64,000 nt of DNA from Minisyncoccota bacterium. Its GTDB lineage: Bacteria; Patescibacteriota; Minisyncoccia; UBA6257; 02-FULL-45-10c. A program made the translations under genes and the position numbers. The notes beneath the pieces were generated by a model that was not told where the DNA came from, ran no database searches, and saw nothing but the letters and a program-made list of their open reading frames with translations. Positions within the stretch are counted from its first letter, which is position 1. Each line of letters starts with the position of its first letter. This document shows positions 22,844 to 50,035 of this stretch, in pieces. The stretch spans positions 9,913 to 73,912 of the forward strand of contig DATDXY010000019.1 of assembly GCA_036517155.1 (NCBI GenBank). The letters are read 5' to 3'.

Positions 22844-22915
22844 ACTGACAAATTTTTCTACGAATGATATACTCTAGACATATCCTGAAAGGTCGAGATT
22901 CAGAATCACACATCA

Positions 22916-34316: not shown

Positions 34317-34349
34317 TTTCGTACTGATAATTTACTAATAATACCACAT

Positions 34350-36155
34350 ATGAACCACTGGAGCAAACTGTCTCCCATTCAACGCCAAGCCGCTCAACAC
34401 GCTAACGGCCCGCTTTTGATTGCCGCCGGCGCCGGATCTGGAAAAACCCTCACCTTAACTAGCCGGTTATTCCACTTGTTGGAATCGGGAGTTGATTCGC
34501 AAAAAATTATCGCGATTACTTTCACTAATAAAGCCGCCAAAGAAATGGCGCATCGAATTCATGCTTTTGCTGTTGATGCAAAAATAAATTTTTCCGAACT
34601 GCCGTTTATCGGCACCTTTCATTCTCTTGGCGCCCGTATTTTGAAAGAAGAGGGGCATTTTTTCCAGCGAACCAATGGATTTACGATTTTTGACGAAGAA
34701 GACAGCGCCAACCTCGTCAAACAAATTATAAAAATAATGGATCTTCCGAAAGATCGGTACAGTCCGGCGATGTTGATTGGAAAAATTTCCGAAATAAAAA
34801 ATGAGCTTTATAATATTGAAACATTTGCGGCAACCAATAAACAAAATCAAGTGGCGACAGCAGTATTTCGCGCTTACGAAGCGATGTTAGAAAGAAATAA
34901 TGCGTTTGATTTCGATGATTTAATCACCAAAGTAGTTTTGGTATTGGAACAAAAACCAGAGGCGCTGGCGCTTTATCAAGAACGCTGGCAACATATTCTT
35001 GTGGACGAATTTCAAGACGTAAATACCAGCCAATACCAGATGATTTCTCTGCTCGCCCGCGCCCATCAAAATCTTTTTGTCATCGGTGATGACGCGCAAA
35101 GCATTTACTCTTTCCGCGGTTCGGACTTCCGTAATTTTCTCAATTTTTCCAAAGATTGGGAACGAGCAAAAATCATCAAACTGGAAGAAAATTACCGATC
35201 TACAAAAAATATCATCCGCGCTGCTTCGGAATTGATCAAAAAGAATACCCTGCAAACGCCGAAAGATTTATGGACTAACAATCCGGAGGGTTCGCTCATC
35301 CGCGTCACCGCTTTTCGTAATGGCGAAGAGGAAGCGTGGGGGATCGGGGAAAAAATCCAGGAATTGATCCGGACCGGCGAAGCGCTTAAAGACATTGCCA
35401 TACTGTACCGAACCAACGCGCAATCACGCGCCATGGAACAGGCCTGCATCCAGCAGGGCGTTGCTTACGAAATTTTTGGCGGACTCAAATTCTACGCCCG
35501 AAAAGAAATCAAAGACATCGTTGCCGGCTTGCGTTTTTCTCTGAATCCCAACGATTCCGTCAGCAAAGAACGGATTCTCAAAACTTTCAATAAGAAAGGT
35601 GGAGAAACCATACTCCGGGATTTGCCCAGACTCGGCGAAGAACTGCCAATCCACGAATTAATCCAATATTTTATTGAAAATACCAAATATGTGGAATATC
35701 TGGAACGCCATTTCAAAAACGTTCCGGAACGATTGGAAAACATCAAAGAATTAATCAATTTCGCCAGTTCGTTCAAAAATGGCCATGATTTTTTGGAAAA
35801 AGTCGCGCTGCTTTCCAGCGGCGATGGCCGACCAAAACTCCAGGAAAATGCGGTTAAATTAATGACAATGCACATGGCGAAGGGATTGGAATTCAAACAC
35901 GTATTTCTTATCGGTATTAACGAAAACCTAATCCCGCACGAACGATCGTTAATGAATAACGACGACCTGGAAGAAGAGCGGCGGCTGATGTATGTCGGCA
36001 TGACCCGAGCGAAAGAAAATCTGCACTTGAGTTTTTATGATTTGCCATCGCGATTTCTGGGGGAATTACCGCCGGAATTAATTGAATTCAAAACCGTGTC
36101 ACCATACCGGGAAGAAAATCGGGATTGGGATGAAGATTCAATTTATTTAGACTAA
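34350..36155 (+). CDS. UvrD/PcrA/Rep family ATP-dependent DNA helicase
   Basis: 601 aa; Walker A AAGAGSGKTLTLTSR; helicase motifs II (VDEFQD) to VI present. Confidence 0.9.
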   Translation: MNHWSKLSPIQRQAAQHANGPLLIAAGAGSGKTLTLTSRLFHLLESGVDSQKIIAITFTNKAAKEMAHRIHAFAVDAKINFSELPFIGTFHSLGARILKEEGHFFQRTNGFTIFDEEDSANLVKQIIKIMDLPKDRYSPAMLIGKISEIKNELYNIETFAATNKQNQVATAVFRAYEAMLERNNAFDFDDLITKVVLVLEQKPEALALYQERWQHILVDEFQDVNTSQYQMISLLARAHQNLFVIGDDAQSIYSFRGSDFRNFLNFSKDWERAKIIKLEENYRSTKNIIRAASELIKKNTLQTPKDLWTNNPEGSLIRVTAFRNGEEEAWGIGEKIQELIRTGEALKDIAILYRTNAQSRAMEQACIQQGVAYEIFGGLKFYARKEIKDIVAGLRFSLNPNDSVSKERILKTFNKKGGETILRDLPRLGEELPIHELIQYFIENTKYVEYLERHFKNVPERLENIKELINFASSFKNGHDFLEKVALLSSGDGRPKLQENAVKLMTMHMAKGLEFKHVFLIGINENLIPHERSLMNNDDLEEERRLMYVGMTRAKENLHLSFYDLPSRFLGELPPELIEFKTVSPYREENRDWDEDSIYLD

Positions 36156-36166
36156 TCATTCACAGT

Positions 36167-36946
36167 ATGCGCGCTAAACTAGGACAACATTTTTTAATCA
36201 ACCGTTCAATCATCCAGAGAATTATCCAATCTCTGGTAACGCAAGCCGGAGAAACGATTATAGAAATCGGTCCGGGCAATGGCGCGCTGACGATTCCGCT
36301 GGCAAAAAATTGCGTAGCTAACAATTGCAATGTCATTGCCATTGAAAAAGATAAAGATTTGTATGCTCAACTTATCGGGCGGTCTTTGCCTAATTCGCAA
36401 TTGGTGCGCGGCGATGCAATAGAAGAATTAGCGAAAATAACCGAGCAGATTACCACGCCCTACAAAATCGTCGGCAATATTCCGTATTACATTACCGGAA
36501 AACTACTGCGAGCGATTAGCGAATTAAAAGTTAAACCCACGCTCTCGGTTTTGATGATTCAACAAGAAGTCGGGGAACGATTAAGCGCGCAACCACCGGA
36601 GATGAATCTCCTCGCCGCCGCCACGCAAATTTGGGCAAAGCCCCGGGTAGTTGCTCGACTGGAACCGAAGGATTTTAGCCCACCGCCCAAAGTCCATTCT
36701 GTAGTTATCGCCTTAGAGACCAAAACCAATCTCCCGACTTCGGCAGAACTCAAAAAATACTATGAGTGCGTCCGTATTCTTTTCAAACAACCGCGAAAAA
36801 CTATACTCAATAACCTGCGATCCGCATTAGAAATACCCAAAAACGAGCTGGAATCCATACTAGAGAAGCTCAATATTGATCCACTCGCTCGACCGCAAAC
36901 TCTCTCCGTGCCCACAATCAAACAACTTTCCGAGCTATTAACATAG
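36167..36946 (+). CDS. rsmA: 16S rRNA (adenine1518/1519-N6)-dimethyltransferase
   Basis: 259 aa; LGQHFLINRSIIQRI and the SAM-binding EIGPGNGALT motif. Confidence 0.9.
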   Translation: MRAKLGQHFLINRSIIQRIIQSLVTQAGETIIEIGPGNGALTIPLAKNCVANNCNVIAIEKDKDLYAQLIGRSLPNSQLVRGDAIEELAKITEQITTPYKIVGNIPYYITGKLLRAISELKVKPTLSVLMIQQEVGERLSAQPPEMNLLAAATQIWAKPRVVARLEPKDFSPPPKVHSVVIALETKTNLPTSAELKKYYECVRILFKQPRKTILNNLRSALEIPKNELESILEKLNIDPLARPQTLSVPTIKQLSELLT

Positions 36947-36979
36947 CCCCCTCCACACAAAGGATATATAATAAAGTAA

Positions 36980-37783
36980 ATGCTAATTAAGTTGTTAACC
37001 GCAACTGCGATTCTTGGCGTAGCTATAGCTAGCGCTTATTTGCTTATTCCAACCAGCGTCCCCGGGACACCAGCTTCGGCTAATTCAAATGAGATTCAAC
37101 AGAAAATCATTGGGGGGATGCCTAGAATAGAATCTTTACAAAATAATTCCAATCTTTCCGCAACGGCTCAACAAATAATTACTTCAACTCCAATAGGGGA
37201 ACAAAACCTTACAAATTCTCTAATCCAAAAAATACAAGAGAGTATTCGGGAGAAAAATCAAAGCGGACCGCAAATAGTAGGAGGACAGTCCACTTTTACC
37301 GCCACCGCTCCGGACAATCTCGCCCAACAAGCATTACAAGAAGCTACAACCAATCTTCCCGAAAATTCATTCCGACCGATTATTAATACCAATTTATTCA
37401 ATATTATTTTTGACAATAACCCAATCGCAATCCGAAATTATTTTGATCAATTTCAATCTATTATCAGTGCCGCGGGAGCGAAAATTCCAGGAATTGTATT
37501 GACTGATATACAGCAAATTACTAATCCGGAAATTCTAGTTCAGCTGATTAACGCGTATCGATCTGCGGCTGAGCAGTTGGCGCCAATTGATGTTCCATCT
37601 TCATTAATTTCTATTCACAAAAAAGAATTGGAACTTCTTGGCACCCAAGCCAATTTATTTGAACGAATCAGTAATTTTGAAATCGATCCCGCGGCGGCAA
37701 TTCTGGCAATCAATGAATTAGAAAACGTGAATGAAGAATTTATTGATCTGGGCGTAGAAATTAATGCTTTGTTTAAAAAATAG
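36980..37783 (+). CDS. Hypothetical secreted/anchored protein (first gene of the T4SS-like operon)
   Basis: 267 aa; N-terminal TM/signal (LLTATAILGVAIASAYLLI). Confidence 0.4.
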   Translation: MLIKLLTATAILGVAIASAYLLIPTSVPGTPASANSNEIQQKIIGGMPRIESLQNNSNLSATAQQIITSTPIGEQNLTNSLIQKIQESIREKNQSGPQIVGGQSTFTATAPDNLAQQALQEATTNLPENSFRPIINTNLFNIIFDNNPIAIRNYFDQFQSIISAAGAKIPGIVLTDIQQITNPEILVQLINAYRSAAEQLAPIDVPSSLISIHKKELELLGTQANLFERISNFEIDPAAAILAINELENVNEEFIDLGVEINALFKK

Positions 37784-37802
37784 TAAAAACTAGTTAATTT
37801 TT

Positions 37803-39404
37803 ATGAAGAAATTTCTTTTAATACTTATTTCTACAACTTTTTTGGCTAATATTTTCCTATCTTTGCCAGCTACAACTCACGCAGTTCCAGTTGAGGTTAT
37901 TAATCCAGTCTTCATTGCTAATCCAATTCTTTTTACCTCAGATGTGCCGAACAAAGTAGTGGCAGCGGCTCATACAAAATTAACAGCAGCTGGGTGGATT
38001 GCCGAAGCAACTCGCTGGGGGAAAGATCTTGCCAGAGAAATTGCTTTAACCATCAAAAAAAGCGCGTTTGCTTTGTTCAAAAAACGAGTGTTGGATCGAA
38101 TGGTAGATGATTTGGTGCAATGGATTACATATGGTGATGATAAAAAACCAAAGTGGGCGGAAGGTGATTTTGAGGAACTGACTCAAAACGCCGCGCAAGC
38201 GGCCATAGGGGATTTAGTGCTTAAAACCAGCTTAGCTCAAATTTGTAGCCCGTTTAAAGCGAAACTTCTTCTTACCTTAACCCCACCGGGACCGGTCAGC
38301 GATCAAGTAAAATGCACCTTAGATCAAATTACTGGTAATATCAATTCTTTTCTCGCAGATTTCAAAAATGGCGGCTGGCTTGCCTATAACGAACTTTGGC
38401 AGCCAAGAAATAATTATTATGCAACCGTGTTGATGACGCTGGATTCCGCTGGGCTCGCAGGCGCAAGAGCGGCGGCCGCCCAACAAAGCGAAGTAATCGC
38501 GGGCCAGGGTTTTCTTGCCACCACAAGATGTGACTATTATCCGGATCCCGATGGCATCTACAAAGACAAATTTGGCCACGCTCTTACCGACCAGGATCTC
38601 ACCGCAATGAACAATGGCGAATGGGTAAACACTTATAGCCGAAAGTGTTACAAAACTACGCCCGGATCAACGATTGCTGGTCTTGCGCTGAAAGCCAATA
38701 CAACATACATTGATTGGCTGATTAACGCAGAAGATATTGACGCATATGTTACGGCCGTTGCTGATGCTCTCATTAATCGAGTGATTAAAGATGGTGTGAA
38801 TGGACTTAAAGGACTTTCTAATAAGAAACCAGATGCGCCGCAACAAAGCCCCGGCAGACCATGCGATGGTCTAACCGGGGCAGCGCTCGCATCGTGCCTT
38901 GGTTACGACAATATTTCCCAGATTAATTACATCAACAATCGTTCTGCCTTAGCATCGCAATCTAATGATTCTATCGAACCCCGCCAAAAAGCTTCTACAT
39001 TGCTCACTCAGGTTATTAGCAAACAAAGCACTCTGGTAACTGCTTTAGAAAATTTGTACACCTGCCAACAATCTACGGGTTTCACTCAAGAAGCAAAAGA
39101 TACTCAATTAGAACTTGATGTGGAAAAAGATAAATTGGAAAGCTTACAAACTCAGTTGGAAGATAATCAATCCGTGATTGATAATTTAGAACAATCAAAA
39201 ATAAATCTGGAAAATACCTCGCAAGAAGATGGCAATTCGCTTATTGTACAAACTGATTATCTTCAATCGGTTGGCGATCCACTGACCGCCAATCAAGTTT
39301 TGGATGACGCGCAAGCAGAATTTGACGGCCTGATCGATTTAGAAACAAAAATTACTTCTGTGCAGGCGCAAAATACCTGCCAACCGACAAAGCCAACTCT
39401 ATAA
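37803..39404 (+). CDS. Hypothetical secreted protein with C-terminal coiled coil
   Basis: 533 aa with a signal peptide; the C-terminal ~100 aa are Q/E/L-rich heptad-like. Confidence 0.45.
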   Translation: MKKFLLILISTTFLANIFLSLPATTHAVPVEVINPVFIANPILFTSDVPNKVVAAAHTKLTAAGWIAEATRWGKDLAREIALTIKKSAFALFKKRVLDRMVDDLVQWITYGDDKKPKWAEGDFEELTQNAAQAAIGDLVLKTSLAQICSPFKAKLLLTLTPPGPVSDQVKCTLDQITGNINSFLADFKNGGWLAYNELWQPRNNYYATVLMTLDSAGLAGARAAAAQQSEVIAGQGFLATTRCDYYPDPDGIYKDKFGHALTDQDLTAMNNGEWVNTYSRKCYKTTPGSTIAGLALKANTTYIDWLINAEDIDAYVTAVADALINRVIKDGVNGLKGLSNKKPDAPQQSPGRPCDGLTGAALASCLGYDNISQINYINNRSALASQSNDSIEPRQKASTLLTQVISKQSTLVTALENLYTCQQSTGFTQEAKDTQLELDVEKDKLESLQTQLEDNQSVIDNLEQSKINLENTSQEDGNSLIVQTDYLQSVGDPLTANQVLDDAQAEFDGLIDLETKITSVQAQNTCQPTKPTL

Positions 39405-39407
39405 ACC

Positions 39408-41330
39408 ATGAAACGTTTTCTCAAAATAATCGGCATCCTGGCAATCACACTTTTGATTATTTTGCCTTTAGCGCCCGCTGCTCGCGCGGAAGTAACTTGG
39501 GTTGAGGGTATTGGCATTTCTGTTTTCGCCAAAGGATTAACCACTCTTACTTACTTAATCGGTTATGCTGGTGGCTTACTTGTCCAACTTGCTGCGCAAA
39601 TGGTTAATTGGTCTTTGAATTTAAACAGCACCATTCTTTCCAGCCGACTGGTGCAGGTTGGGTGGCTTATCACCCGCGATCTTGCCAATCTTGGCTTTGT
39701 GCTGGCAATTATTTTAATCTCCTTTTTTACTATTTTCCGGTTCAATAATTACGACACAAAGAATATGTTGGTAAAATTGGTTATTTCTGCCTTACTAATC
39801 AATTTCAGTTTGGTTATTGCCGGTTTATTCATTGATTTCTCTGGAATTCTGACTAACTTTTTTGTCTCTAAAGCTACCGGCGGCGATCCCGCAAAAATGG
39901 CAGAAAATTTAGCCGGCGCATTTCAAGTGCAAAAATTACTCCAATCAACCGATAACTTGGACGTACTGACAAAAACCGCCGGTCAATTAAGCGATAGTTT
40001 CGCTGGTTGGCCAATTTTTTTCGCTTCGCTATTTTTCTCGGTTATTTTTTCTCTCATTGCCGCGATATCTATCGGCGCGGTTGGAGTAATGCTTTTTATT
40101 CGCTATATCTGGCTGGTGATGTTGGTTATTCTTATGCCAATCGCTTGGTTGCTTCGCGTTCTCCCAGAAACCGAGGGGAGGTGGAAAGAGTGGTGGAATG
40201 ATTTTTTACATTGGGTATTTTTTGCTCCAGCCGTCACTTTTTTTATCTATCTTGCTTTTGCGTTATTGGAAAATAAAGCAGAGGCGACAAAAACCTTGTC
40301 TTTGGAAGCGGCGAGCGGATTATTTAGCGTAGGCACCTTACAACAGGGCGCCGGGGAAATTATCGGTCAGATGATCGCCTTAACTGGAATTCTGATTGGG
40401 GGATTGAAAGTTGCCAGTAAAATGGGCGTTACCTTTGCCAATACCGCAATGGGGTTTGCGAATAAAGCAACCAGCGCAATTCTTGGGGGGACCATCCGAG
40501 GCACTGGGAAAATGGCTGGCGGAGCAGCTGGCGGAGCAGCGGGTTGGATCAAAGAAAAAGCGCTTACCGCCGGAGCTGGCGGCGGCAAAGAAAGTTATTT
40601 GCAAAGAGCTTCCGCGTGGCTTGCGAATAAACCAATCCCTGGAGCGCGCGCGTTAAGCACCGGCATCGCCAAAACCACCAAAGCAACACTTCAAGATGTG
40701 GAAAAATATCAAAAAGATAATATTGCCGATTTAACAAATGACGCTTTAATAGCAATGGCAAAAAATCCTTTAAATACCAGTACAGCGAATGCGGCAATTG
40801 CCCGGGAACTGGCTACGCGTCGAGACGCAACTGGCGTACCGATCGTTAATAAAGAAAAAGGCGCTTTCAAAGATGACGATCGCTTGTTAAGTCTTATGCG
40901 GGATGCGGATAGATTTGGATCCGCTGACGCGTTAATCAGCTCGCGTCCAGACCTTGGATTGCAATTGGGTAAAACAAAAGTAGAAATCTATGCCAAAGTT
41001 AAATCTGAAGATCGAGATAAACTTGGAGCGAAATTCTTTTCTGACGAAGACGGTCAAAAACTCTTATTAAAAATTAAGGGTGAGGATTTGGGTAACTTCG
41101 CCAAGAAATGGAGCGGTTCTGATCAAGAAGAGTTTATAGAATCTCTGCACCAAGCAATTACTAAAATCACTGACATCAATAGCAATGACGCAAAACAATT
41201 CCGAGCCATTGCCAGCCAAATTCGCCGCAGTCCAGCCTGGCCGGTAAAAATAGATCTTCAGAAAATTACTAATCTCTATACACCAGAACAATTAAAGAAA
41301 GTTCAGGGTGAAGAAGAAAGAAAATCATAA
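39408..41330 (+). CDS. VirB6/TrbL-like polytopic membrane protein with long hydrophilic C-terminal tail
   Basis: 640 aa; signal peptide plus about six TM helices in the first ~330 aa, Gly-rich linker, hydrophilic C-terminus. Topology and operon position match VirB6/TrbL/PrgH-type channel proteins. Confidence 0.45.
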   Translation: MKRFLKIIGILAITLLIILPLAPAARAEVTWVEGIGISVFAKGLTTLTYLIGYAGGLLVQLAAQMVNWSLNLNSTILSSRLVQVGWLITRDLANLGFVLAIILISFFTIFRFNNYDTKNMLVKLVISALLINFSLVIAGLFIDFSGILTNFFVSKATGGDPAKMAENLAGAFQVQKLLQSTDNLDVLTKTAGQLSDSFAGWPIFFASLFFSVIFSLIAAISIGAVGVMLFIRYIWLVMLVILMPIAWLLRVLPETEGRWKEWWNDFLHWVFFAPAVTFFIYLAFALLENKAEATKTLSLEAASGLFSVGTLQQGAGEIIGQMIALTGILIGGLKVASKMGVTFANTAMGFANKATSAILGGTIRGTGKMAGGAAGGAAGWIKEKALTAGAGGGKESYLQRASAWLANKPIPGARALSTGIAKTTKATLQDVEKYQKDNIADLTNDALIAMAKNPLNTSTANAAIARELATRRDATGVPIVNKEKGAFKDDDRLLSLMRDADRFGSADALISSRPDLGLQLGKTKVEIYAKVKSEDRDKLGAKFFSDEDGQKLLLKIKGEDLGNFAKKWSGSDQEEFIESLHQAITKITDINSNDAKQFRAIASQIRRSPAWPVKIDLQKITNLYTPEQLKKVQGEEERKS

Positions 41331-41338
41331 AATATTTT

Positions 41339-42214
41339 ATGGAAATTTCTAACTTACAATCTATCAGCGCCGCATTTCAGTCATTGCCAGAAAAAATTAA
41401 AGATTGGCTTGCGTCGGTTGATATTATTTTGCGCATCGAGCAAATATCAATTCGTTTCAATTTCAATAATTTGGAACAAGAAACTATTATTCCAAATTTA
41501 ATTTTACGGCTTTGTATTCAAAATTTAGACCCGCGAGATTTTATTAATACCCTAAGCATTCAACTTGGAGTTGATTTTGAAACCGCAAAAAAAATAACCC
41601 TAGATATTGAACGAGATATTCTTCGGGTTATTGAAATAGAACTCCGTCGCGATGTTGGAGTAGATATTAAGAATCTTTATTTTGGCAAACCCGGAGATCA
41701 AGCGCTGCGACCAATTAATGCGCCAACCCCATCTAGGACTCAAGAAACTCAGCCCCAATCAATACCAATAAAACCAATGGAAATCCCATCGGGGCCAAAC
41801 GTATCCTCTTGGTTAAAACCAAAAGATCAACCCGTTATCCAGACTCCTCCGGTAGAAAAACCCCAAACCGTTCAAGCGTCACTAACCAAGCAAAAGCCTT
41901 TAATTCCCAATGGCGGTCCAAAAATTGACTTGGAACACTTTGAAATTAAAGGGGAACCGTTTATTTTACACCAAGAACCGGGTACGACGCCGGCGACTGA
42001 AGCACCAAGGGTTTCTCCGGGATTTTCATTTAAAATCCCAACTTCATCTTTAACTTCTGAAAAACCCACTCCACAGAAATCAGTTTCGGTAAAATTAGAA
42101 ACTCCTCGGACGGTTAATTACAGCGATTTTCGAACCCCGTTGCCACCGCCTTCGCCCAACTCAGATACAAATCGTAAAAATACTGTTGATTTACGCAATA
42201 GCAATAATAAATAA
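41339..42214 (+). CDS. Hypothetical Pro-rich protein
   Basis: 291 aa; Pro-rich C-terminal half. Confidence 0.4.
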   Translation: MEISNLQSISAAFQSLPEKIKDWLASVDIILRIEQISIRFNFNNLEQETIIPNLILRLCIQNLDPRDFINTLSIQLGVDFETAKKITLDIERDILRVIEIELRRDVGVDIKNLYFGKPGDQALRPINAPTPSRTQETQPQSIPIKPMEIPSGPNVSSWLKPKDQPVIQTPPVEKPQTVQASLTKQKPLIPNGGPKIDLEHFEIKGEPFILHQEPGTTPATEAPRVSPGFSFKIPTSSLTSEKPTPQKSVSVKLETPRTVNYSDFRTPLPPPSPNSDTNRKNTVDLRNSNNK

Positions 42215-42222
42215 ATTATCAA

Positions 42223-42720
42223 ATGCAATTTCAAGTTCCGCAATTTATTGAAACCGAAGATAAAATTATCGGCCCACTCACACTAAAACAATTTCTCTAT
42301 CTCGCTCTGGCTGGAGGAGCGTGTTTTGGATTATATTTTATTTTAGACACCTGGCTGTGGCTTCTAGTTTCTATTTTTGTAGGAGCCATCGCCGCCGCCT
42401 TGGCATTCATCAAAGTCAATGGCCGCCCATTGCCGGTAATTGCTTTTGCCGCTTTTCAATATTATTGGAAGCCAAGATTTTATTTGTGGAAACACCAGGC
42501 AGAAACCGGACCAACAACTCATTTTCCGGAAGTGAAAAAACCGATTTTGGAACGATTGCGGGAACAATTACTGACTTCCAAAGCACCCATCCCAAAAAGA
42601 GAAAAAATCCTGAAACAACCGATTTTGGAAACCGCTGGCAAGCAAAGTAAAGAGCGATTTGAAATCCTTCGACGCATCACGGGAGAACGCGAGGTCTCTC
42701 GCCGCGTGGATTATCGTTAA
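42223..42720 (+). CDS. PrgI/VirB3-like small membrane protein
   Basis: 165 aa; MQFQVPQFIETEDKIIGPLTLKQFLYLALAGGACFGLYFIL followed by a second TM. It sits immediately upstream of VirB4, as in Gram-positive T4SS (PrgI-PrgJ). Confidence 0.45.
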   Translation: MQFQVPQFIETEDKIIGPLTLKQFLYLALAGGACFGLYFILDTWLWLLVSIFVGAIAAALAFIKVNGRPLPVIAFAAFQYYWKPRFYLWKHQAETGPTTHFPEVKKPILERLREQLLTSKAPIPKREKILKQPILETAGKQSKERFEILRRITGEREVSRRVDYR

Positions 42721-42743
42721 CCGAACTAGTATAATAAGGTAAC

Positions 42744-43397
42744 ATGCCAAACACACAAGAAGCATCGCCAATCCAACAATTTATTGAATTGGAGTCAATT
42801 GAAAATGGCGTTATCCATTTGAAAAATGGTGGATTAAGGAAAATTTTGCTGGTGTCCGGAATTAATTTTGACCTAAAATCGGAAGAGGAGCAGGGGATGA
42901 TTACTTACGCCTTTCAAAGTTTTCTCAATACCCTGGATTTTTCTCTCCAATTCTTTATCCATTCTCGAAAGCTCAATATTGACGATTATTTGGTGAAATT
43001 GGAAGATCGAGAAAAACAAGAACCCAGTGAATTGCTCAAAAATCAAATTTCCGAATATCGGGAATTTATCCGCGCGTTTGTCAGTCAGAACGCGATTATG
43101 GCAAAAACATTTTTCGTGATTGTTCCTTATAATCCATTGCGAATTCCCAAAGCCGGTACCGCCTTCACGGAAAAATTGACTCGATTATTCAGCAAAAGCA
43201 CCCCCAGCGAACAACCCCAAACTAGCGAACAAGAACAAATGGAACAACTGAATCTTCGCATAGATCAGGCAATCGCGGGCTTGAACCAAATTGGGCTTCG
43301 GGCCGTGCCATTAGATGATGATGAACTTTCGGAGCTGTTTTATAACCTCTATAATCCCGCGTCAGTCGAGCAAAAGAAAATTGACACGTCTGAATAA
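42744..43397 (+). CDS. VirB4/TrsE-family N-terminal domain, separated from the ATPase domain by an in-frame TAA
   Basis: 217 aa; IHLKNGGLRKILLVSGINFDLKSEEEQGMITYAFQSFLNTLDF matches the conserved N-terminal region of Gram-positive VirB4/TrsE proteins. It is in the same frame as 43401-45110. Confidence 0.55.
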   Translation: MPNTQEASPIQQFIELESIENGVIHLKNGGLRKILLVSGINFDLKSEEEQGMITYAFQSFLNTLDFSLQFFIHSRKLNIDDYLVKLEDREKQEPSELLKNQISEYREFIRAFVSQNAIMAKTFFVIVPYNPLRIPKAGTAFTEKLTRLFSKSTPSEQPQTSEQEQMEQLNLRIDQAIAGLNQIGLRAVPLDDDELSELFYNLYNPASVEQKKIDTSE

Positions 43398-43400
43398 TTT

Positions 43401-45110
43401 ATGGAATCAGAAAAAAAACTTATCAATATCATTGCCCCATCCGGCCTGCAAGTAGAGCCACAGTACTTGAAATTGGGGAATAAACTCGCAAAGACTTTGT
43501 TCGTATTTTCCTACCCCCGTTATCTGGCCACGGGTTGGTTTTCCGGAATTATTAATATGCCGGAATTATTGGATATCTCCATTTTCATCCACCCAGTAGA
43601 TACGGTACTCGCGCTTCGCACCCTCCGCCGAAAAGCTACTCAAGTGGAATCCCAACTGATTGAACGCCAACAAAAGGGGTTGGTTCGGGATCCGATTCTA
43701 GAAACCGCTTTTCAAGACGTGGAATCTCTGCGCGATTCCCTGCAGCAATCCCGCGAACAATTATTCAATGTTGGTGTATACATCACTTTTTACGCCGACA
43801 CGGTGGAACAATTAAATAAATTGGAAAATAAAATTTCCGCGTTTTTAGAAAGTCGTTTGATTTACGCTAAACCGGCGTTATTTCAACAATTAGAAGGGTT
43901 CGCATCCACTCTTCCGCTTAATCAAGACAAATTAGAAGTCCATTCGCCGCTTAATTCCAGTCCACTTTCCTCAATTTTCCCATTCACCTCAGCAAACCTT
44001 ACTTCGGATGAGGGTATTCTTTATGGCATTAATCGGCACAATAATACTTTGGTTATTTTTGATCGATTTTCACTGGAAAATGCTAATTTAGTTATTTTCG
44101 CCAAGTCTGGCAGTGGCAAATCTTATGCGACCAAACTGGAAGCGCTGCGATTATTGATGATGGGCGTGGATGTAATTATTATTGACCCGGAAAATGAATA
44201 TGAAAACATGGCAAAGGCAGTTGGTGGTAGTTATTTCCGCATCTCTCTCGCCTCCGACCACCATATCAATCCCTTTGAACTTCCTATTGTCGCGTCCGGC
44301 GACGATCCGAGTGATTCGTTGAAATCCCACATCGTGAACTTATCCGGATTATTGAAAATAATGCTCGGCAAGCTTACTCCGGAAGAAGATGCGATCTTGG
44401 ATCGCGCTTTGGCGGAAACTTACGCTTCCCACGATATTGTCGCGGGAAAAGATTTTTCCCAAGCGGTGCCGCCACTGTTGGAAGATTTAGAAAAAATTCT
44501 CCTGAATATGGAGGGTGGTCGGGGATTAAGCCAACGTTTATATAAATTCACTCAGGGCAGTTATGCCGGTTTTACCAATCAACCAACTAATGTCGATATT
44601 AAAAATCGGCTGATTGTCTTTTCTATCCGTGACCTCGAAGAGGAATTACGGCCAATCGCAATGTATATTGTGTTGAATTTTATTTGGAATCTTATCCGCG
44701 CCAATCTTAAAAAACGGGTGCTGATTGTGGATGAGGCGTGGGTGTTGATGAAATATGAAGACGGGGCTTCGTTTATGTTTGGTTTGGTAAAACGTTGCCG
44801 AAAATATTTCTTAGGAGTCACCACAATTACCCAAGACGTGGAAGATTTCTTGAAATCTCCGTATGGCCGGCCGATTATTACCAATTCTTCGTTACAACTC
44901 CTTCTTAAACAATCACCAGCGATGATTGATGTAGTAATTAAGTCCTTCAATCTTACCGACGGAGAAAAAAGCCTTTTATTGGAAGCGGGGGTTGGCGAAG
45001 GATTATTTTTTGCCGGTTTAAATCATGTCGCGATTCAGGTGGTCGCTTCGTATATTGAAGATAAAATTGTGACTACCAAACCAGAACAAATTCTGGAACA
45101 ACATTCATGA
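43401..45110 (+). CDS. VirB4/TrsE-family type IV secretion ATPase (C-terminal ATPase domain)
   Basis: 569 aa; Walker A FAKSGSGKSYAT, Walker B LIVDEAW, VirB4-type C-terminal motifs. Confidence 0.85.
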   Translation: MESEKKLINIIAPSGLQVEPQYLKLGNKLAKTLFVFSYPRYLATGWFSGIINMPELLDISIFIHPVDTVLALRTLRRKATQVESQLIERQQKGLVRDPILETAFQDVESLRDSLQQSREQLFNVGVYITFYADTVEQLNKLENKISAFLESRLIYAKPALFQQLEGFASTLPLNQDKLEVHSPLNSSPLSSIFPFTSANLTSDEGILYGINRHNNTLVIFDRFSLENANLVIFAKSGSGKSYATKLEALRLLMMGVDVIIIDPENEYENMAKAVGGSYFRISLASDHHINPFELPIVASGDDPSDSLKSHIVNLSGLLKIMLGKLTPEEDAILDRALAETYASHDIVAGKDFSQAVPPLLEDLEKILLNMEGGRGLSQRLYKFTQGSYAGFTNQPTNVDIKNRLIVFSIRDLEEELRPIAMYIVLNFIWNLIRANLKKRVLIVDEAWVLMKYEDGASFMFGLVKRCRKYFLGVTTITQDVEDFLKSPYGRPIITNSSLQLLLKQSPAMIDVVIKSFNLTDGEKSLLLEAGVGEGLFFAGLNHVAIQVVASYIEDKIVTTKPEQILEQHS

Positions 45111-45493
45111 ACCAGAGATCAAAAATAGATATGGTGGACGGATTTATTATGCTCGCTATGGCCGGTATTGCTGACGGGACCGAATTTCTAATGAATTATG
45201 TTGCCGCTATTCCAGTAATAGGATTGGGTGGACCATTAATCGCATCGCTGATTAGTTTTTTGGTATCGGCGATTTTACTAGCTTGGTTTATAATAAAAGG
45301 AATACCGTTGGGTTATCTTTTATCCGGCAGCGCGGTAGATATGATGCCGTTGGTCAATATGCTTCCAGCAAAAACCGCCGCGGTGATTGCGACAATTTTA
45401 AAAGACCGGGGAGCTGCCAATATAAAAACAACATCCCCAGAAACCAAAGAAGAAAAACCAAAACAAGAAGAAGAATTAAAAGAAGCAGTATAA
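45107..45493 (+). CDS. Hypothetical two-TM membrane protein
   Basis: 128 aa; overlaps the VirB4 stop by 4 nt; two TM helices then a K/E-rich tail. Confidence 0.4.
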   Translation: MNQRSKIDMVDGFIMLAMAGIADGTEFLMNYVAAIPVIGLGGPLIASLISFLVSAILLAWFIIKGIPLGYLLSGSAVDMMPLVNMLPAKTAAVIATILKDRGAANIKTTSPETKEEKPKQEEELKEAV

Positions 45494-45494
45494 T

Positions 45495-46169
45495 ATGCAC
45501 CGTTTAATATTTTCTATCATCTTTGTCGCCAGCATTTTAATTGCCGTTACTTCTTCCGCCCAAACCGCTCCGGAATTTATCACTTCTTGGAGAGCGATTA
45601 ATTATGTCCCAGCCACATACCTAGGCAAGATTTTCCCGACTAAGGGAAGTATTATCATTGTTGGTTTTGATCTCTTGGATAAAAATCAATTTGTGAACCT
45701 CTCTAAAGCAGAAATCCAATGGGATATTGATAACACGGTTCTCCAAACGGGGATTGGGATTCAACAAGTTCAATTTCAAAGTAATACGAATACCAATCAG
45801 CACGTCGTTCGCATAACAATTCGTAATTTTGGAACTTCCGAACTCAACTACACCTTTACTATCCCAATCAAAAAACCGCTTTTAATCATTGATGCTCCGG
45901 TGCCAAATCGACAATTGAGCCTTGGTCCCACCTTGTTCCGGGCTTTGCCATATTTTTTCAACACAAATAATCTTAGTACTGTGCGGTTTCAATGGTCCCG
46001 TAATGGACAAATCGTCACCGGCGATGCCAACACCCCAAACGCTTTAACACTTGAGATTTCTTCCGAAGGAAATCCGGTGGATAGCGATATCACTCTTTCC
46101 GCGTCCGCGCAAAATATTTTAAACCCGCTGGAAAATGCAACACAATTACTTAATTTAAAAATACGCTAA
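45495..46169 (+). CDS. Hypothetical secreted protein
   Basis: 224 aa with a signal peptide (IIFVASILIAVTSSAQT). Confidence 0.4.
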   Translation: MHRLIFSIIFVASILIAVTSSAQTAPEFITSWRAINYVPATYLGKIFPTKGSIIIVGFDLLDKNQFVNLSKAEIQWDIDNTVLQTGIGIQQVQFQSNTNTNQHVVRITIRNFGTSELNYTFTIPIKKPLLIIDAPVPNRQLSLGPTLFRALPYFFNTNNLSTVRFQWSRNGQIVTGDANTPNALTLEISSEGNPVDSDITLSASAQNILNPLENATQLLNLKIR

Positions 46170-46172
46170 TTT

Positions 46173-47255
46173 ATGAAATATTTTATCACAAACTTTATTC
46201 TGATAATTTGCATACTTAGCTTTATACCCAAGACATTTGCCGAAGAAGCAGATGCACGTGGTCTTATTTGTCCATCAGGCAGCACGGGTTATTACAAACT
46301 TGTTATGAAAAATATTTCCGGAGTTACTGAAGAGGTTGCGAAAAAATCATTAAAAAACATCACTCTAGGAATATTGACTCTCGGTGGATATAATTTATAT
46401 TCTGCATTTAATTTTACATCAGAAACTGGGCAGTTTTATGATAGGTATCTTGAACGTTGCGCTTCTAATATTCTTAAAGATTGTCCCGCGGATAGAATTA
46501 CAGCCGATCCCAATAATACTAATCAAAAAATTTGTTTAGTGAATCCGATAAAACTTACTAATCCAAATCTATTAAAAAATAAGGAACCGATTCAGGCCTA
46601 TACTTCCCAAGTCGCTATTCCTTGCAAGGAAATTGCTGGGGGGAAGTGCCCCAATCAAGATACTGGTCCAGCGGCCTATATTGCCCGTCTTTATACTTTT
46701 GGATTAATGATTGCCGGCGCAGCCGCGTTTGGAATGATTATTTTTGGAGGATTTAAATATGTTTTAGCCGCCGGGAATCTCGCGTCTACCCAAGAAGCCA
46801 AGGAAACCATTACTGGGGCAATTTGGGGATTGTTACTGCTTTTAATGGCTTATGTGATTCTCTACACGATTAATCCTCGATTAGTTAATGTTCAAGATCC
46901 AAACGCGCCGACTCTTTTTAGAGACTTTTCTCAAGAAGCTAGCATTGACCAACCCAACCAATTACTTCCAGCTATTGAGCCGGGCATCAAAGATCCGAAT
47001 TGCCGCATTTCTATTCAAGTGGATTTAACCACGCCAACCATTGGCGACCCCAACAATCCTAATGGTAAACCAATTTTGGAAAGTGGTAGAAAATCAGTGT
47101 GCGCGCCCTGGGGTTGTAATACGAATTCGTTCCGTACTATCGAAGGAATTTGTGAGTGTAATTTAGGATTTGCTCCTGACGCCGATGGAATTTGCGCAAA
47201 AACACTTGGCCCAGAACAAAATAGGGGATTTTTTCCTCAACCAAATACACAATAA
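46173..47255 (+). CDS. Cys-rich secreted protein with embedded pilin-like two-TM module
   Basis: 360 aa; signal peptide, Cys-rich ectodomain, internal hairpin of two TM helices (YTFGLMIAGAAAFGMIIFGGFKYVLAAGN…ITGAIWGLLLLLMAYVILYTI) resembling the VirB2/TrbC core. Confidence 0.4.
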   Translation: MKYFITNFILIICILSFIPKTFAEEADARGLICPSGSTGYYKLVMKNISGVTEEVAKKSLKNITLGILTLGGYNLYSAFNFTSETGQFYDRYLERCASNILKDCPADRITADPNNTNQKICLVNPIKLTNPNLLKNKEPIQAYTSQVAIPCKEIAGGKCPNQDTGPAAYIARLYTFGLMIAGAAAFGMIIFGGFKYVLAAGNLASTQEAKETITGAIWGLLLLLMAYVILYTINPRLVNVQDPNAPTLFRDFSQEASIDQPNQLLPAIEPGIKDPNCRISIQVDLTTPTIGDPNNPNGKPILESGRKSVCAPWGCNTNSFRTIEGICECNLGFAPDADGICAKTLGPEQNRGFFPQPNTQ

Positions 47256-47258
47256 AAT

Positions 47259-48332
47259 ATGAATAAAACAATTAAAATAGTTCTCATTTTAGCCGTAATT
47301 CTTCTTACTTTTGTGGGCGGATATTTTATTCTAAAAAATCTCGTGGAAAATAACGTTACTGATTTAGGACAAATTAAAACCGACAATGAAACGGGTCAAC
47401 CCATACTCTCTTCTTCAGCTCTTCAACAATTAATCTTTACCCCGATAGTTGATTATTGGATCCAATCGGATAATGACATTTACGCGTTAACCGAAACTGG
47501 GCAAGTAATTACGGTCAAAAATGGAGAAGTGGAACTGATAAATTCCCAAACTTTTTCTAAAATTCACTCTCTCGCGCCATCGTTTGACGGTGAAAAAATC
47601 ATTTTGGAATTCAATTTCCCCGATGCTCCTCGTTTCAATATTTTTAACACCACAGACGGAACCTGGCAGGGACTTCCCAGCGCGACTCGCGCTGCCGCCT
47701 GGTCACCAAATTCTTTGGAAATCGCATACTTGGAAGGCAATGCTTTAAAAATTCTGGAACCGAAAAAACAAACCACTCGAACGATAATTTCTATTTTTCA
47801 GCCGGACGCGCAGCTGAAATGGGTTGAGCCAAATCAAATCCTGATTAATTCTTACCCAAGCGCCTTACTCACCACTCGTATTTGGTCATTAAATCTCAAA
47901 ACAAAGTCTATCACTCCGTTTTTGAATGAAACCGGTGCGGTGTTGACTTGGTCTAATGATAAAGAACTTGCCTTAAAACTTCGCAGTTCTGCGCAGGGTT
48001 CGGTTTTAAGCCTTTTCCACAAGACTGGCACTCAAATTGATTTGAATATTCTGACTCTTCCGGAAAAATGCGAATTAACTAACAACCAAATTTATTGCGG
48101 CGTTCCAAAAATTATCCGAGAAGGCCTTACTTTATTAGATGACTATTACCAGCGCAATGTGTATTTTGACGACAATCTTTATTTAATTGATTTAACTAAT
48201 GGAACTAATTCTTTACTTTTGGAAAATCCTGGATTTCCAATTGATGTAAGCCATCCCAAACTTACGTCAGACAATCAACTGCTTTTTATCAACCGCTACG
48301 ATAATAAATTGTATACTTTAAAGTTAAAATAA
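47259..48332 (+). CDS. Hypothetical membrane-anchored protein (possible beta-propeller)
   Basis: 357 aa; N-terminal TM; last gene of the operon. Confidence 0.4.
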   Translation: MNKTIKIVLILAVILLTFVGGYFILKNLVENNVTDLGQIKTDNETGQPILSSSALQQLIFTPIVDYWIQSDNDIYALTETGQVITVKNGEVELINSQTFSKIHSLAPSFDGEKIILEFNFPDAPRFNIFNTTDGTWQGLPSATRAAAWSPNSLEIAYLEGNALKILEPKKQTTRTIISIFQPDAQLKWVEPNQILINSYPSALLTTRIWSLNLKTKSITPFLNETGAVLTWSNDKELALKLRSSAQGSVLSLFHKTGTQIDLNILTLPEKCELTNNQIYCGVPKIIREGLTLLDDYYQRNVYFDDNLYLIDLTNGTNSLLLENPGFPIDVSHPKLTSDNQLLFINRYDNKLYTLKLK

Positions 48333-48335
48333 AAA

Positions 48336-48362
48336 CATCCGCCAGTTGGCGGATGTTTTTAT
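48336..48362. terminator. Bidirectional rho-independent terminator
   Basis: CATCCGCCAGTTGGCGGATG hairpin flanked by A5 and T5; lies between the convergent operon end and jag. Confidence 0.7.
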
Positions 48363-48781
48363 AATGGCTTGATAATTACGCATCGCTCTTTTCCTTCTCC
48401 GACGCTTTCCGTTTTCACGTCTGGCCGGGAAGCGAGTTCCATATGCACCAGACGCCGTTCATAGCCGTTCATCGCCGGCAAAGCTACTTCCTTTTTTTGG
48501 ACCAATACTTTCCGGGCGGCGGCCTTGGCCAGTTCCGTAATTAAATGTTCCCGCTCTCGGCGATAATTATTGATATCCACAATAAAAGTATTCAAACTGT
48601 GACGTTTGGCCACCAAATTCAAAACAATTTCCAGTTCCGAAATTAATTTCGGCAAGGCCTCTTTGGATTCCATATGGGAATCAAAAATAGTAATCCGGCG
48701 GCCCTCAATATCCACATCCACCGAAACATCTTTCAGGCCGGTAGTAACTATTTGTTGAATTGTTTCTTTAAAATCCGCCAT
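48359..48781 (-). CDS. jag: Jag/KhpB-like R3H domain RNA-binding protein
   Basis: 140 aa; C-terminal R3H motif (GYERRLVHMELA); position downstream of yidC is conserved. Confidence 0.8.
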   Translation of the reverse strand: MADFKETIQQIVTTGLKDVSVDVDIEGRRITIFDSHMESKEALPKLISELEIVLNLVAKRHSLNTFIVDINNYRREREHLITELAKAAARKVLVQKKEVALPAMNGYERRLVHMELASRPDVKTESVGEGKERCVIIKPL

Positions 48782-48785
48782 AGAA

Positions 48786-49430
48786 TCAAATTTTTACGGT
48801 TTTATTGATATAGATTTGTTGAATGATCGCGAATACAGAGGTTGCCAACCAGTACAATCCGACCGCGGATGGTAAATTGGTTAATATTACCAACGTCAGC
48901 ACCGGACCGATAAAAACCATCTGCCGTCCCATTCGTTCTGGCGCGGACAATTCTTTTCCCTCTTGAATTTTTGGCAAGGACAATTTCCCCTGAAAATACT
49001 GGGCAATTGCTGCTAAACCAACCATTACTATACTCTTATCTTGGAGGTTTATCAAATTCAAAAAAACCGGGTGAATACTAGAAAAATCACCCATAAACAC
49101 CTTATACAAGGCGATTAAAATCGGCAACTGAATGAACAAAATAAGAAAATTGGAAAACGGATTTACTTTATGGGTTTTGTACAACTCCATCATTGCCTGC
49201 GCTTGTTTTTCTTTGTTGTCTTTGTGATCGTGCTGAATCTGTTGAAGGAGTGGTTGAATTTTTTGCAGCAATAATTGGTTCTTGGCGCTCTTATAAAATA
49301 ACGGCAACAACACCAATCGAACTAAGAAAGTTAGGATAATAATTGCTATCCCCAGATCGTGAAATGCGGCATTTTCATATAAAAACATCAGGGTCTTCAA
49401 AAGCGGATTATAAAGAAAGGTGTTAAACAT
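48786..49430 (-). CDS. yidC: Membrane protein insertase YidC (short form)
   Basis: 214 aa; LGIAIIILTFLVRLVLLPL…QLPILIALYKV is typical of YidC/Oxa1 TM segments. Confidence 0.85.
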   Translation of the reverse strand: MFNTFLYNPLLKTLMFLYENAAFHDLGIAIIILTFLVRLVLLPLFYKSAKNQLLLQKIQPLLQQIQHDHKDNKEKQAQAMMELYKTHKVNPFSNFLILFIQLPILIALYKVFMGDFSSIHPVFLNLINLQDKSIVMVGLAAIAQYFQGKLSLPKIQEGKELSAPERMGRQMVFIGPVLTLVILTNLPSAVGLYWLATSVFAIIQQIYINKTVKI

Positions 49431-49755
49431 TTTTAAAACATTGTTCTAATTGTAGGATAATTTCTGCCTTTGGTACACGCTTAATGGCAGAACTAACAAT
49501 AATCAACACATCCATTGACGGAATCATCGTAATATAAGTTTGTAAGGCTTGAAATATACTTCGTTTAATCTGATTTCTTTCTACGGCTTTAGCGGCTACT
49601 TGCTTGCTGACAATTATACCAAAACGGCAGTGGGGGAGGGTAGAATTAAAAAATTTTAATAAAAAAATGTCGCTTTTTTTAGTAAAACGACTTTTTCTAC
49701 CAACTACCCCTTGAATGGGCAGGCGATATTTTTTTGGCAGCATACTACGCCGCAA
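49423..49755 (-). CDS. rnpA: Ribonuclease P protein component
   Basis: 110 aa; LPKKYRL…[24 protein letters not shown] is the RnpA signature; the start may be the Met at MLPKK. Confidence 0.85.
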
Positions 49756-49879
49756 GACGATTTCGCCCCTTTTGCCGGCGGCGCGACAAAACTCTTCGGC
49801 CGCTGGAAGTCCGGCTTCGCTTTAAAAAGCCATGAGTACGTGCCCGTTTTCTCTTTTTGGGCTGATAAGTTCTGGACAT
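49745..49879 (-). CDS. rpmH: 50S ribosomal protein L34
   Basis: 44 aa from the ATG at 49877-49879: [44 protein letters not shown]. Confidence 0.85.
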
Positions 49880-49949
49880 AGCCTTGAGCTTATCATACGC
49901 CTTTACAAACATCAACCATCTCATCACAATTAGGAGATATACTCCGGTC

Positions 49950-49980
49950 AAAATGAGTTTTCCACAGATTTTCCACACCT
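49950..49980. promoter_or_regulatory. Two direct DnaA-box-like 9-mers (TTTTCCACA) upstream of dnaA
   Basis: Boxes at 49958-49966 and 49969-49977 (consensus TTWTNCACA), spaced 11 bp apart. Confidence 0.5.
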
Positions 49981-50035
49981 TATTAAGTTTTTCGGCTTTT
50001 GACGCTGGCGTTAGTAAAAACTAGAATTACCTTAC

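Follow-up and report, generated by a model that had tools for sequence, protein, structure and literature searches.

The Patescibacteria, or CPR bacteria, are ultrasmall organisms that account for much of bacterial diversity, and nearly all are thought to live on other cells; a type IV secretion system (T4SS) encoded close to the replication origin is one of a handful of machines whose essentiality for this epibiotic lifestyle has been shown. Quinonero-Coronel et al. (2025; PMC12102498) described a Patescibacteria clade of the ATPase VirB4 that is nested in the MPF-FATA class and occurs in 2,417 of 3,035 genomes. TrsD is its commonest partner, along with PrgI/VirB3, VirB6 and pilins of family PF18895, including arrays of 2-11 genes; relaxases were found in only 103 genomes, genes for type IV coupling proteins (T4CPs) are seldom near virB4, and in Paceibacteria and Microgenomatia the T4SS lies beside dnaA, dnaN, rnpA, ksgA and rpmH (PMC12102498). 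In Southlakia epibionticum ML1 the T4SS (SEML1_0006-0019) has neither a coupling protein nor a relaxase, and was essential for epibiotic growth in transposon sequencing (Wang et al. 2023, PMC10633639). A 2025 review sets the T4SSs of Patescibacteria apart from those of all other monoderms, as systems that are essential and potentially able to make pili (PMC12857230), and tubular structures, possibly T4SS pili, have been reported to extend into the host of a cultivated relative, with the acquisition of host RNA proposed (bioRxiv 10.64898/2026.06.21.733656). This study focused on an operon of 11 genes (36980-48332, + strand) in a 64-kb stretch of DNA from a Minisyncoccota bacterium (assembly GCA_036517155.1, contig DATDXY010000019.1), hereafter called the window, which very probably represents the Paceibacteria (Parcubacteria) version of this chromosomal Patescibacteria-clade T4SS, that is, an MPF-FATA-derived monoderm machine that has lost its link to conjugation and would serve the epibiotic lifestyle.

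The locus resembles the Patescibacteria-clade systems in each of their main traits. It has a monoderm-type VirB4 with a separate TrsD-like protein just upstream, a PrgI/VirB3 protein, a VirB6-like protein (by its orthologues) and PF18895 pilins that include a tandem array; neither a relaxase nor a T4CP turned up among the scanned ORFs of the window, and the neighbourhood is that of dnaA, dnaN, rnpA, ksgA and rpmH. The feature is real, intact and well delimited, and is an instance of a system already published in papers of 2023-2025. As a Paceibacteria example it is clean and complete: its genes are intact, VirB4 is split, the pilin array is distant and the cassette has 11 slots. It introduces no new principle. 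What is added here is the recognition of a positional cassette of 11 slots, a TolB-like propeller protein, the size of the slot 2 family, a C-terminal peptide in slot 4, and the finding that VirB4 is more conserved than DnaA.

Motor and membrane platform

The 11 open reading frames (ORFs) are all intact, all on the + strand, and encode proteins of 128-640 aa. They are numbered here by their position, or slot, in the operon, and are separated by 19, 3, 8, 8, 23, 3, -4, 1, 3 and 3 bp, which agrees with the co-directional, tightly packed set of genes first noticed in the sequence. For comparison, VirB4 relatives were collected by a scan of one genome per species, which found at least 595, and the best 80 were examined as related loci. 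Four slots make up the putative motor and its membrane platform:

39408-41330, + strand: slot 3, VirB6/TrbL-like polytopic protein, 640 aa
42223-42720, + strand: slot 5, PrgI family protein (VirB3 equivalent, PF12666) with a hairpin of two transmembrane (TM) segments
42744-43397, + strand: slot 6, TrsD-like protein, 217 aa, the VirB4 N-terminal domain as a gene of its own
43401-45110, + strand: slot 7, VirB4 ATPase, 569 aa, with the middle and C-terminal P-loop domains

Slot 7 scores above the cut-off for the CD1110 family of VirB4 proteins (NCBIfam NF045971; E 1.1e-111, 374 bits, cut-off 325), matches Pfam families PF19044, PF12846 and PF01935, and carries both a Walker A (AKSGSGKS) and a Walker B (VLIVDE) motif. 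In the PDB its best match was the C-terminal domain of Thermoanaerobacter VirB4 (4AG5, 2e-41), and TrwK was matched at 7e-8. Slot 7 is the predicted motor of the system. The preceding slot 6 aligns to positions 2-121 of the CD1110 VirB4 model, 14-142 of TrsD (NF041427, E 4.5e-7) and 9-179 of TIGR00929 (VirB4_CagE), and is parted from slot 7 by a TAA stop codon (43395-43397), both ORFs being in the same frame in the window. TrsD and VirB4 are encoded separately in 69 of 75 related loci and fused in the other six, and across the 69 split loci the gap between the genes varies from -8 to 486 nt, with all three relative frames seen. Because every frame and such a wide range of gaps occur, the split is an ancient two-gene arrangement; programmed read-through and a pseudogene at the junction were also considered, and both are excluded by this variation. 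Two relatives, L007 (at about 9.6-10.0 kb) and L037, have an insert of 427-486 nt between trsD and virB4, containing an ORF of about 120 aa that resembles the four-helix-bundle '23S rRNA intervening-sequence protein' and having short flanking repeats, and this may be a small mobile insertion.

Slot 5 is well above the cut-off for PF12666 (E 9.1e-12, 45.8 bits, cut-off 27), and a PrgI gene lies directly upstream of trsD-virB4 in 73 of the 80 related loci. Slot 3 has about six TM segments within residues 1-340, followed by a hydrophilic C-terminal extension of about 300 aa, an architecture known as 'extended VirB6'. By itself it gave a sub-threshold match to NF046089 (the CD3337/EF1877 mobilome membrane family, E 5.7e-5), while four of its 44 orthologues match PF04610 (TrbL/VirB6, best 1.9e-7) and three match PF19597 (TrbL_4). 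By way of these orthologues the putative VirB6 identity of slot 3 holds, and at least 46 of the 80 loci keep a protein of this type in that slot.

The original prediction, made from the letters of this DNA, had called a VirB6/TrbL-like protein at 39408-41330, a PrgI/VirB3-like protein at 42223-42720 and a VirB4 ATPase at 42744-45110. The first is borne out by the orthologue matches and the second directly by PF12666, and the third was correct as to VirB4 but not as to a single gene, since that interval holds both the TrsD-like gene and the ATPase gene on either side of the TAA stop. The assignment to type IV secretion, as opposed to a tight-adherence (Tad) or type II secretion system (T2SS) locus, likewise stands, given the profile matches to VirB4, VirB3, VirB6 and pilin families; none of the 11 operon proteins matches a Tad, T2SS or type IV pilus family (PilB/GspE ATPase, PilC/GspF platform, prepilin-type pilins). 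Among the operon proteins there were also no matches to VirB7, VirB9 or VirB10, VirB8, VirB11 or VirB5, as is expected for a monoderm system.

Pilin genes

The operon encodes one protein with a pilin domain, and three more pilin genes lie 14 kb upstream:

46173-47255, + strand: slot 10, long VirB2-like pilin-domain protein, 360 aa, with 13 Cys
22098-22478, + strand: pilin array gene 1, 126 aa (local pilin model E 7e-9; PF18895 33.8 bits, cut-off 26.6)
22466-22843, + strand: pilin array gene 2, about 125 aa, found by the local model (PF18895 40.1 bits); start codon picked within a longer ORF, 22238-22843
22916-23245, + strand: pilin array gene 3, 109 aa, found by the local model (PF18895 35.9 bits)

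Slot 10 consists of a signal peptide, an outside N-terminal domain of about 150 aa, a two-TM pilin hairpin (residues 172-232) and an outside, Cys-rich C-terminal domain of about 125 aa. It falls just below the PF18895 cut-off (E 2.6e-5, 24.6 bits), but all 35 of its 35 orthologues match that family (best 2.3e-11), and one matches TrbC/VirB2. A local hidden Markov model (HMM) built from the pilin core of slot 10 and run on all ORFs of the window detected the three tandem genes of canonical size at 22098-23245, all of which are above the PF18895 cut-off. Both termini of slot 10 would be expected to face outward, so that its 150-aa and 125-aa Cys-rich extensions would decorate the exterior of a tube, and for this reason the arrangement suggests that slot 10 could be a minor or tip pilin and the three small pilins the major subunits. 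Some ORFs orthologous to slot 10 also match the peptidoglycan-hydrolase domains Peptidase_M23 (2e-33), VanY (4e-11) and Peptidase_M15_4, and these may be either pilin-hydrolase fusions or artefacts of ORF calling.

Genomic context and inheritance

The operon lies between housekeeping genes and ends close to the replication origin:

34350-36155, + strand: uvrD/pcrA helicase gene (Pfam match)
36167-36946, + strand: rsmA/ksgA (Pfam match)
48329-48362: hairpin with a 15-bp stem, where the converging slot 11 and jag genes meet
48359-52721: origin-proximal block of jag (-), yidC (-), rnpA (-), rpmH (-), dnaA (+) and dnaN (+)
50036-51412, + strand: dnaA, within that block

By its best hits, the VirB4 of the window belongs with those of other Patescibacteria. 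Nearly all of the best 80 relatives, out of the at least 595 found, are from metagenome-assembled genomes labelled Patescibacteria and share 60-82% identity with it, from lineages of Parcubacteria/Paceibacteria such as Harrisonbacteria, Kaiserbacteria, Vogelbacteria, Jorgensenbacteria and others. Among plasmid-borne VirB4s, the nearest belong to Firmicutes and Actinobacteria, share 30-36% identity and are annotated as CD1110 family. A synteny comparison, which the original prediction had listed as a check, was carried out by tblastn of the window genes against the related loci, and recovered the order uvrD-rsmA-[11-slot cassette]-jag-yidC-rnpA-dnaA-dnaN in dozens of Patescibacteria-labelled, species-level genomes; the order uvrD-rsmA-slot 1 is kept in 25-38 of the 80 loci. 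Where BLAST similarity fades, the slots can still be recognised by their position, their size and their TM pattern: a protein of about 250 aa with one TM segment, a secreted one of about 500-1200 aa, a VirB6-like protein of 6-10 TM and a cytoplasmic protein of 200-400 aa (slots 1-4), then PrgI, TrsD, VirB4, a small 2-4-TM protein, a secreted protein with immunoglobulin (Ig)-like domains, a pilin-domain protein and a one-TM propeller protein (slots 5-11).

Against the closest locus (L001), VirB4 is 82% identical, DnaA 67%, UvrD 66% and DnaN 63%, while the surface and extracellular proteins of the operon reach 29-42%, a contrast that fits a motor under strong constraint and host-facing parts that would be evolving fast. 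The G+C content of the operon (0.411) is close to that of the remainder of the window (0.430) and so gives no sign of foreign origin. Because the same gene order is found between the same housekeeping genes in dozens of genomes, and given the conservation, the composition and the distance of the plasmid VirB4s, the evidence excludes a recently integrated element and indicates a machine of monoderm (MPF-FATA) ancestry, inherited vertically under strong selection.

The chromosomal setting next to the origin, between rsmA and jag/yidC/rnpA, was recognized at the outset and is confirmed, with rpmH, dnaA and dnaN following. The cumulative GC skew has its minimum at 48-50 kb of the window, and DnaA-box-like sites cluster ahead of dnaA (49958/49969) and between dnaA and dnaN (51394-51577); by these two measures the operon ends about 1.6 kb from the origin region. 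The uvrD and rsmA genes are on the same strand as the operon, and since the gaps are only 11 bp (uvrD-rsmA) and 33 bp (rsmA-slot 1), they may be co-transcribed with it. At the other end, jag encodes an R3H protein and is convergent with the operon. The hairpin between them is the sole strong stem-loop in 34000-50200, and is a probable bidirectional terminator that would close the operon. Overall, terminator-like sites were not above those in shuffled sequences, and promoter/terminator scan counts were at chance (40 where 36 would be expected, and 24 where 20 would be).

As the operon is left of the origin and on the + strand, uvrD, rsmA and the entire T4SS operon (34350-48332) are read towards the origin, head-on to the replication fork, and this orientation relative to dnaA is identical in the syntenic loci. 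Such an orientation is hard to square with the published view that proximity to the origin serves to raise expression.

Relaxase, coupling protein and neighbouring genes

A Pfam scan was made of nearly all ORFs of at least 200 aa in the window, with four short or overlapping ORFs left out, and no match to relaxase or T4CP (VirD4/TcpA) families was found among the scanned ORFs, as had been supposed from the sequence. The borders of the operon are rsmA and jag, and no integrase gene, att repeat or tRNA gene occurs at either. Of the marks of a conjugative T4SS or an integrative conjugative element (ICE), neither a relaxase, without which no oriT can be defined, nor VirD4/TcpA was found among the scanned ORFs of the window, the borders are not those of a mobile element, and dozens of relatives carry the locus at this very site. 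Outside the operon, all Pfam matches were to housekeeping genes or genes of unrelated function (trigger factor, H+-PPase, NusA, FtsH, S1, GyrA, a solute-binding protein, PNPase, a ComM-like protein, an M23/LysM peptidase, PBP1, a PilB-like protein, RuvB, an amidase and a split PolA), and a few ORFs had none.

Several of these neighbours deserve comment. The gene at 33303-34316 (- strand) encodes a protein with LysM and Peptidase_M23 domains, is divergent from uvrD and lies 2.6 kb upstream of the operon, and it is found at the same place in the closest loci with a long enough flank (L001, L013, L014 and L017). It could be a stand-in for a VirB1-type wall hydrolase, and equally could be a cell-division enzyme. 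A XerC/D-like tyrosine recombinase gene (26043-26951, - strand; Phage_integrase 1.6e-40) is about 1.1 kb from a tRNA gene (24845-24926, + strand) and 10 kb from the T4SS operon, with housekeeping genes between. A PNPase gene (27903-29969, + strand) is 7 kb from the operon on its upstream side; PNPase and VirB4 have been linked, in a 2026 preprint, as ancestral traits for host-RNA feeding in the Patescibacteria phylum. Downstream, a PilB/GspE-type ATPase (56697-58406, + strand; T2SSE E 1e-117) is part of a separate type IV pilus system, and PilB-like genes are also found downstream in L019, L032 and L056. DNA polymerase I is encoded by two adjacent + strand genes, one for the 5'-3' exonuclease (61266-62126, 286 aa) and one for the family-A polymerase domain (62134-63615, 493 aa). 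Three large ORFs have no Pfam match at E<=0.01: 7835-10186 (- strand, 783 aa), 30224-31348 (+ strand, 374 aa) and 16469-17362 (- strand, 297 aa).

Accessory proteins

The remaining six slots are of less certain role:

36980-37783, + strand: slot 1, bitopic, 267 aa, one N-terminal TM helix and an outside domain that is mostly helical
37803-39404, + strand: slot 2, secreted protein, 533 aa
41339-42214, + strand: slot 4, cytoplasmic protein, 291 aa, no TM segment
45107-45493, + strand: slot 8, small polytopic protein, 128 aa, with 2-3 TM segments and a charged tail
45495-46169, + strand: slot 9, secreted protein, 224 aa
47259-48332, + strand: slot 11, membrane-anchored TolB-like beta-propeller protein, 357 aa

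Slot 1 has one TM segment and gave no match in Pfam or in a profile search of the PDB, and in 24 loci the place behind rsmA is likewise taken by a protein of 180-350 aa with one TM segment. Slot 2 begins with a signal peptide, which is followed by a conserved Cys-containing domain (residues ~85-345) and, at the C-terminus, by a coiled coil, and its family numbers 5,878 cluster representatives, none of them characterised. The PDB profile search of slot 2 matched coiled-coil chains alone, at residues ~390-510, apart from a non-significant GH108-like match (E 0.14). AlphaFold models reached a pLDDT of 48 with 18 sequences and of 66 (pTM 0.52) with 133 sequences, and gave no fold assignment. One slot 2 orthologue matches DUF4141 (1.9e-7), a match that could not be placed in the alignment.

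Slot 4 is without a match in Pfam or in the PDB profile search, and has a conserved N-terminal domain (about 100 aa) that a long, Pro-rich, disordered linker connects to a short conserved peptide at the C-terminus. The peptide is VDLR in the window and DPYRE in more distant relatives, mostly with V or I before it. Among positional orthologues in 40 loci (e.g., L034:7566-8345 and L071:7607-8800), 18 of 41 sequences have the DPYRE-like form, often followed by P, while in the clade nearest the window it reads VDL[RK], N(I/V)xxL(K/R) or VVHYSD. The peptide resembles a docking motif. Slot 8 has no Pfam match; a protein of 80-280 aa with 2-4 TM follows virB4 in about 60 loci. The idea that slot 8 is a divergent pilin was unsupported by the local pilin HMM. 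Neither slot 1, 4 or 8 nor their positional orthologues could be matched in Pfam or NCBIfam as candidates for VirB8 or VirB1.

Slot 9 has a signal or TM segment at residues 4-22. Six of its 30 orthologues match BiPBP_C (Ig-like) and others PKD, and there is a weak match to the Ig-like Hoc protein, so that slot 9 probably consists of two Ig-like beta-sandwich domains. Slot 11 has an N-terminal TM segment (residues 7-25) and is present in 45 of the 80 loci. The profile of its orthologues matches the TolB propeller domain in the PDB (E 5.8e-12), and there are weak Pfam matches to propellers.

Two features of the partner proteins had been described correctly from the sequence: the Cys-rich protein with an embedded pilin-like two-TM hairpin is slot 10, with its 13 Cys and the PF18895 matches of all 35 orthologues, and the protein with a C-terminal coiled coil is the 533-aa slot 2 protein. 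Two other statements of the original prediction need revision. Most partner proteins were said to be without recognisable homologs, whereas there are thousands, none characterised, and the T4SS genes were taken to lie within 36980-48332, which overlooked the three PF18895 pilin genes at 22098-23245. The locus could guide the annotation of the many 'hypothetical' genes that surround virB4 in Paceibacteria, and slots 2, 4 and 11 could be chosen as targets for structural or genetic study.

Possible function

On the pattern of the R388 and pKM101 structures and of the Gram-positive Prg/Trs systems, TrsD and VirB4 would form a hexameric motor on the inner side of the membrane, docked via PrgI/VirB3 onto the VirB6-like platform. 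The motor would pull pilins out of the membrane and polymerise them into a tube, and the bitopic slot 1 protein, the Cys- and coiled-coil-containing slot 2 protein, the Ig-like slot 9 protein and the slot 11 propeller could help the tube to cross the wall and to contact the host. Judging from the literature, such a machine would support epibiotic growth and move macromolecules between host and epibiont rather than conjugate DNA. A non-conjugative role in host interaction, which the original prediction had also put forward, is the role proposed in the literature (PMC12102498, PMC10633639, PMC12857230).

A number of points weigh against the view of the locus as a Patescibacteria-clade T4SS serving an epibiotic lifestyle. 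Its function is extrapolated from a different class, the Saccharimonadia, and the sequence gives neither a direction of transport nor a substrate. Membership of VirB4 in the Patescibacteria clade is judged by best hits, and the VirB6 and in-operon pilin calls rest on matches of orthologues, the window proteins themselves being below threshold. Within the operon no VirB8-like (NTF2) protein and no lytic protein of VirB1 type came to light (Pfam and NCBIfam, with PDB profiles for slots 1 and 4), and five of the 11 operon proteins are without a detectable characterised relative. The single transcript is putative; promoter and terminator scans stayed at chance level except for the hairpin at the end of the operon. 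Lastly, VirD4-like genes are found elsewhere in most Patescibacteria genomes (PMC12102498), and a distant coupling protein is therefore possible, the present search having covered 64 kb.

As to what such a machine might carry, uptake of host material through the pilus, used as a 'feeding tube', is tentatively and slightly favoured over T4CP-independent export. The fuller proposal of a coupling-protein-independent pilus that would be an import conduit for host RNA or other cytoplasmic macromolecules, with the uncharacterised slots as new, lineage-specific T4SS parts, is speculative and, taken whole, rather unlikely. Under this proposal the slot 2 family and the TolB-like propeller would be wall-spanning or host-contact modules, the long Cys-rich pilin would be a decorated or tip pilin, and slot 4, with its C-terminal VDLR/DPYRE peptide, would be a docking adaptor on VirB4 that replaces the T4CP.

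Possible too, if somewhat doubtful, is that the system exports proteins (effectors or toxins) into the host or the milieu independently of a T4CP, like Bordetella Ptl and Brucella VirB. The lack of relaxase and T4CP in the window would suit this, T4CP-less precedents exist (PMC12102498, PMC12857230), and Wang et al. suggest that the S. epibionticum T4SS 'may instead export proteins' (PMC10633639); several operon proteins with Sec signals could be Ptl-like substrates. However, profile searches recognised no effector, toxin or immunity gene among the operon proteins, the secreted proteins are conserved by position, as structural parts would be, and the direction of transport is unreadable from sequence.

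It is improbable that the pilus is solely adhesive, attaching the cell to its host and transporting nothing. Conjugative pili are mainly attachment organelles (PMC12857230), and four pilin-domain genes together with Ig-like and propeller surface proteins could be seen in the same way, but adhesion is already served by type IV pili, as indicated by the PilB-like ATPase of the window (56697-58406) and in agreement with the literature, and the retention of a VirB6-type channel protein in the same slot (at least 46 of 80 loci) is a further point against a solely adhesive pilus.

A DNA-uptake (competence) machine like Helicobacter pylori ComB or archaeal Ced is more improbable still. VirB4 shows weak, partial matches to CedB (E 8e-12) and CedD, the absence of relaxase and T4CP from the window would be compatible with uptake, and Patescibacteria are described in the literature as lacking nucleotide synthesis. 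Yet these matches amount to 44 and 27 bits against cut-offs of 700 and 600, and there is no CedA-like partner. Moreover, competence in S. epibionticum depends on type IV pili and ComEC, and deletion of comEC abolishes transformation without being lethal while the T4SS is essential (PMC12857230), so that the essential role of the T4SS is not ComEC-linked DNA uptake.

A decayed ICE that has lost its relaxase and coupling protein, to which the kinship of VirB4 with Firmicutes ICE and plasmid ATPases and the tyrosine recombinase gene 10 kb upstream (26043-26951) might point, is effectively refuted by synteny and conservation: the same order and housekeeping neighbours recur in dozens of species-level genomes, VirB4 is better conserved than DnaA, 11 of 11 ORFs are intact, composition is as in the rest of the window, and the rsmA and jag borders carry no integrase, att repeat or tRNA.

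Comparison with known systems

Archaeal Ced and H. pylori ComB share with the locus, as a Patescibacteria-clade T4SS, the absence of a relaxase, and employ a VirB4-family ATPase run in reverse; they differ in that the window VirB4 is only weakly and partially similar to CedB/CedD, no CedA accompanies it, and competence in cultivated Patescibacteria goes by way of type IV pili and ComEC. Bordetella pertussis Ptl and Brucella VirB are likewise without coupling protein and relaxase, chromosomal and dedicated to host interaction, but belong to the diderm MPF-T systems, have VirB7-VirB11 and transport known substrates, whereas the window system is monoderm.

The conjugative MPF-FATA systems of Firmicutes used for comparison were the Trs system of pGO1/pSK41 (TrsC-TrsD-TrsE), CTn2 (a CD1110 VirB4 and a CD3337/EF1877-type membrane protein) and the Prg system of pCF10 (PrgH, PrgI, PrgJ). 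In common with these, the window has a VirB4 above the CD1110 cut-off, a PrgI family protein and no outer-membrane core of VirB7/VirB9/VirB10, and the split arrangement of TrsD and a TrsE-like protein is as in pGO1. In contrast, it is without relaxase, T4CP, oriT context or a PrgB-type surface adhesin, and is chromosomal and vertically inherited rather than carried by a plasmid or ICE, and its VirB4 has only 30-36% identity to plasmid VirB4s. VirB2-like pilins are absent from Gram-positive conjugation systems (PMC12102498, PMC12857230) and present in the window.

In the S. epibionticum cluster there are two genes for VirB6-like proteins, one each for an NTF2-like (VirB8-like) protein and a lysozyme (VirB1-like), and six for pilins, whereas the window operon has one VirB6-like gene, no detectable NTF2 or lytic gene and one long pilin-domain protein, its three canonical pilins being 14 kb off. 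The window carries an M23/LysM peptidase gene next to uvrD, on its upstream side and on the other strand, and the TolB-like propeller, the Ig-like protein and the slot 2 family are extra. Beneath these differences the core order is the same in both, VirB6-(x)-PrgI-TrsD-VirB4.

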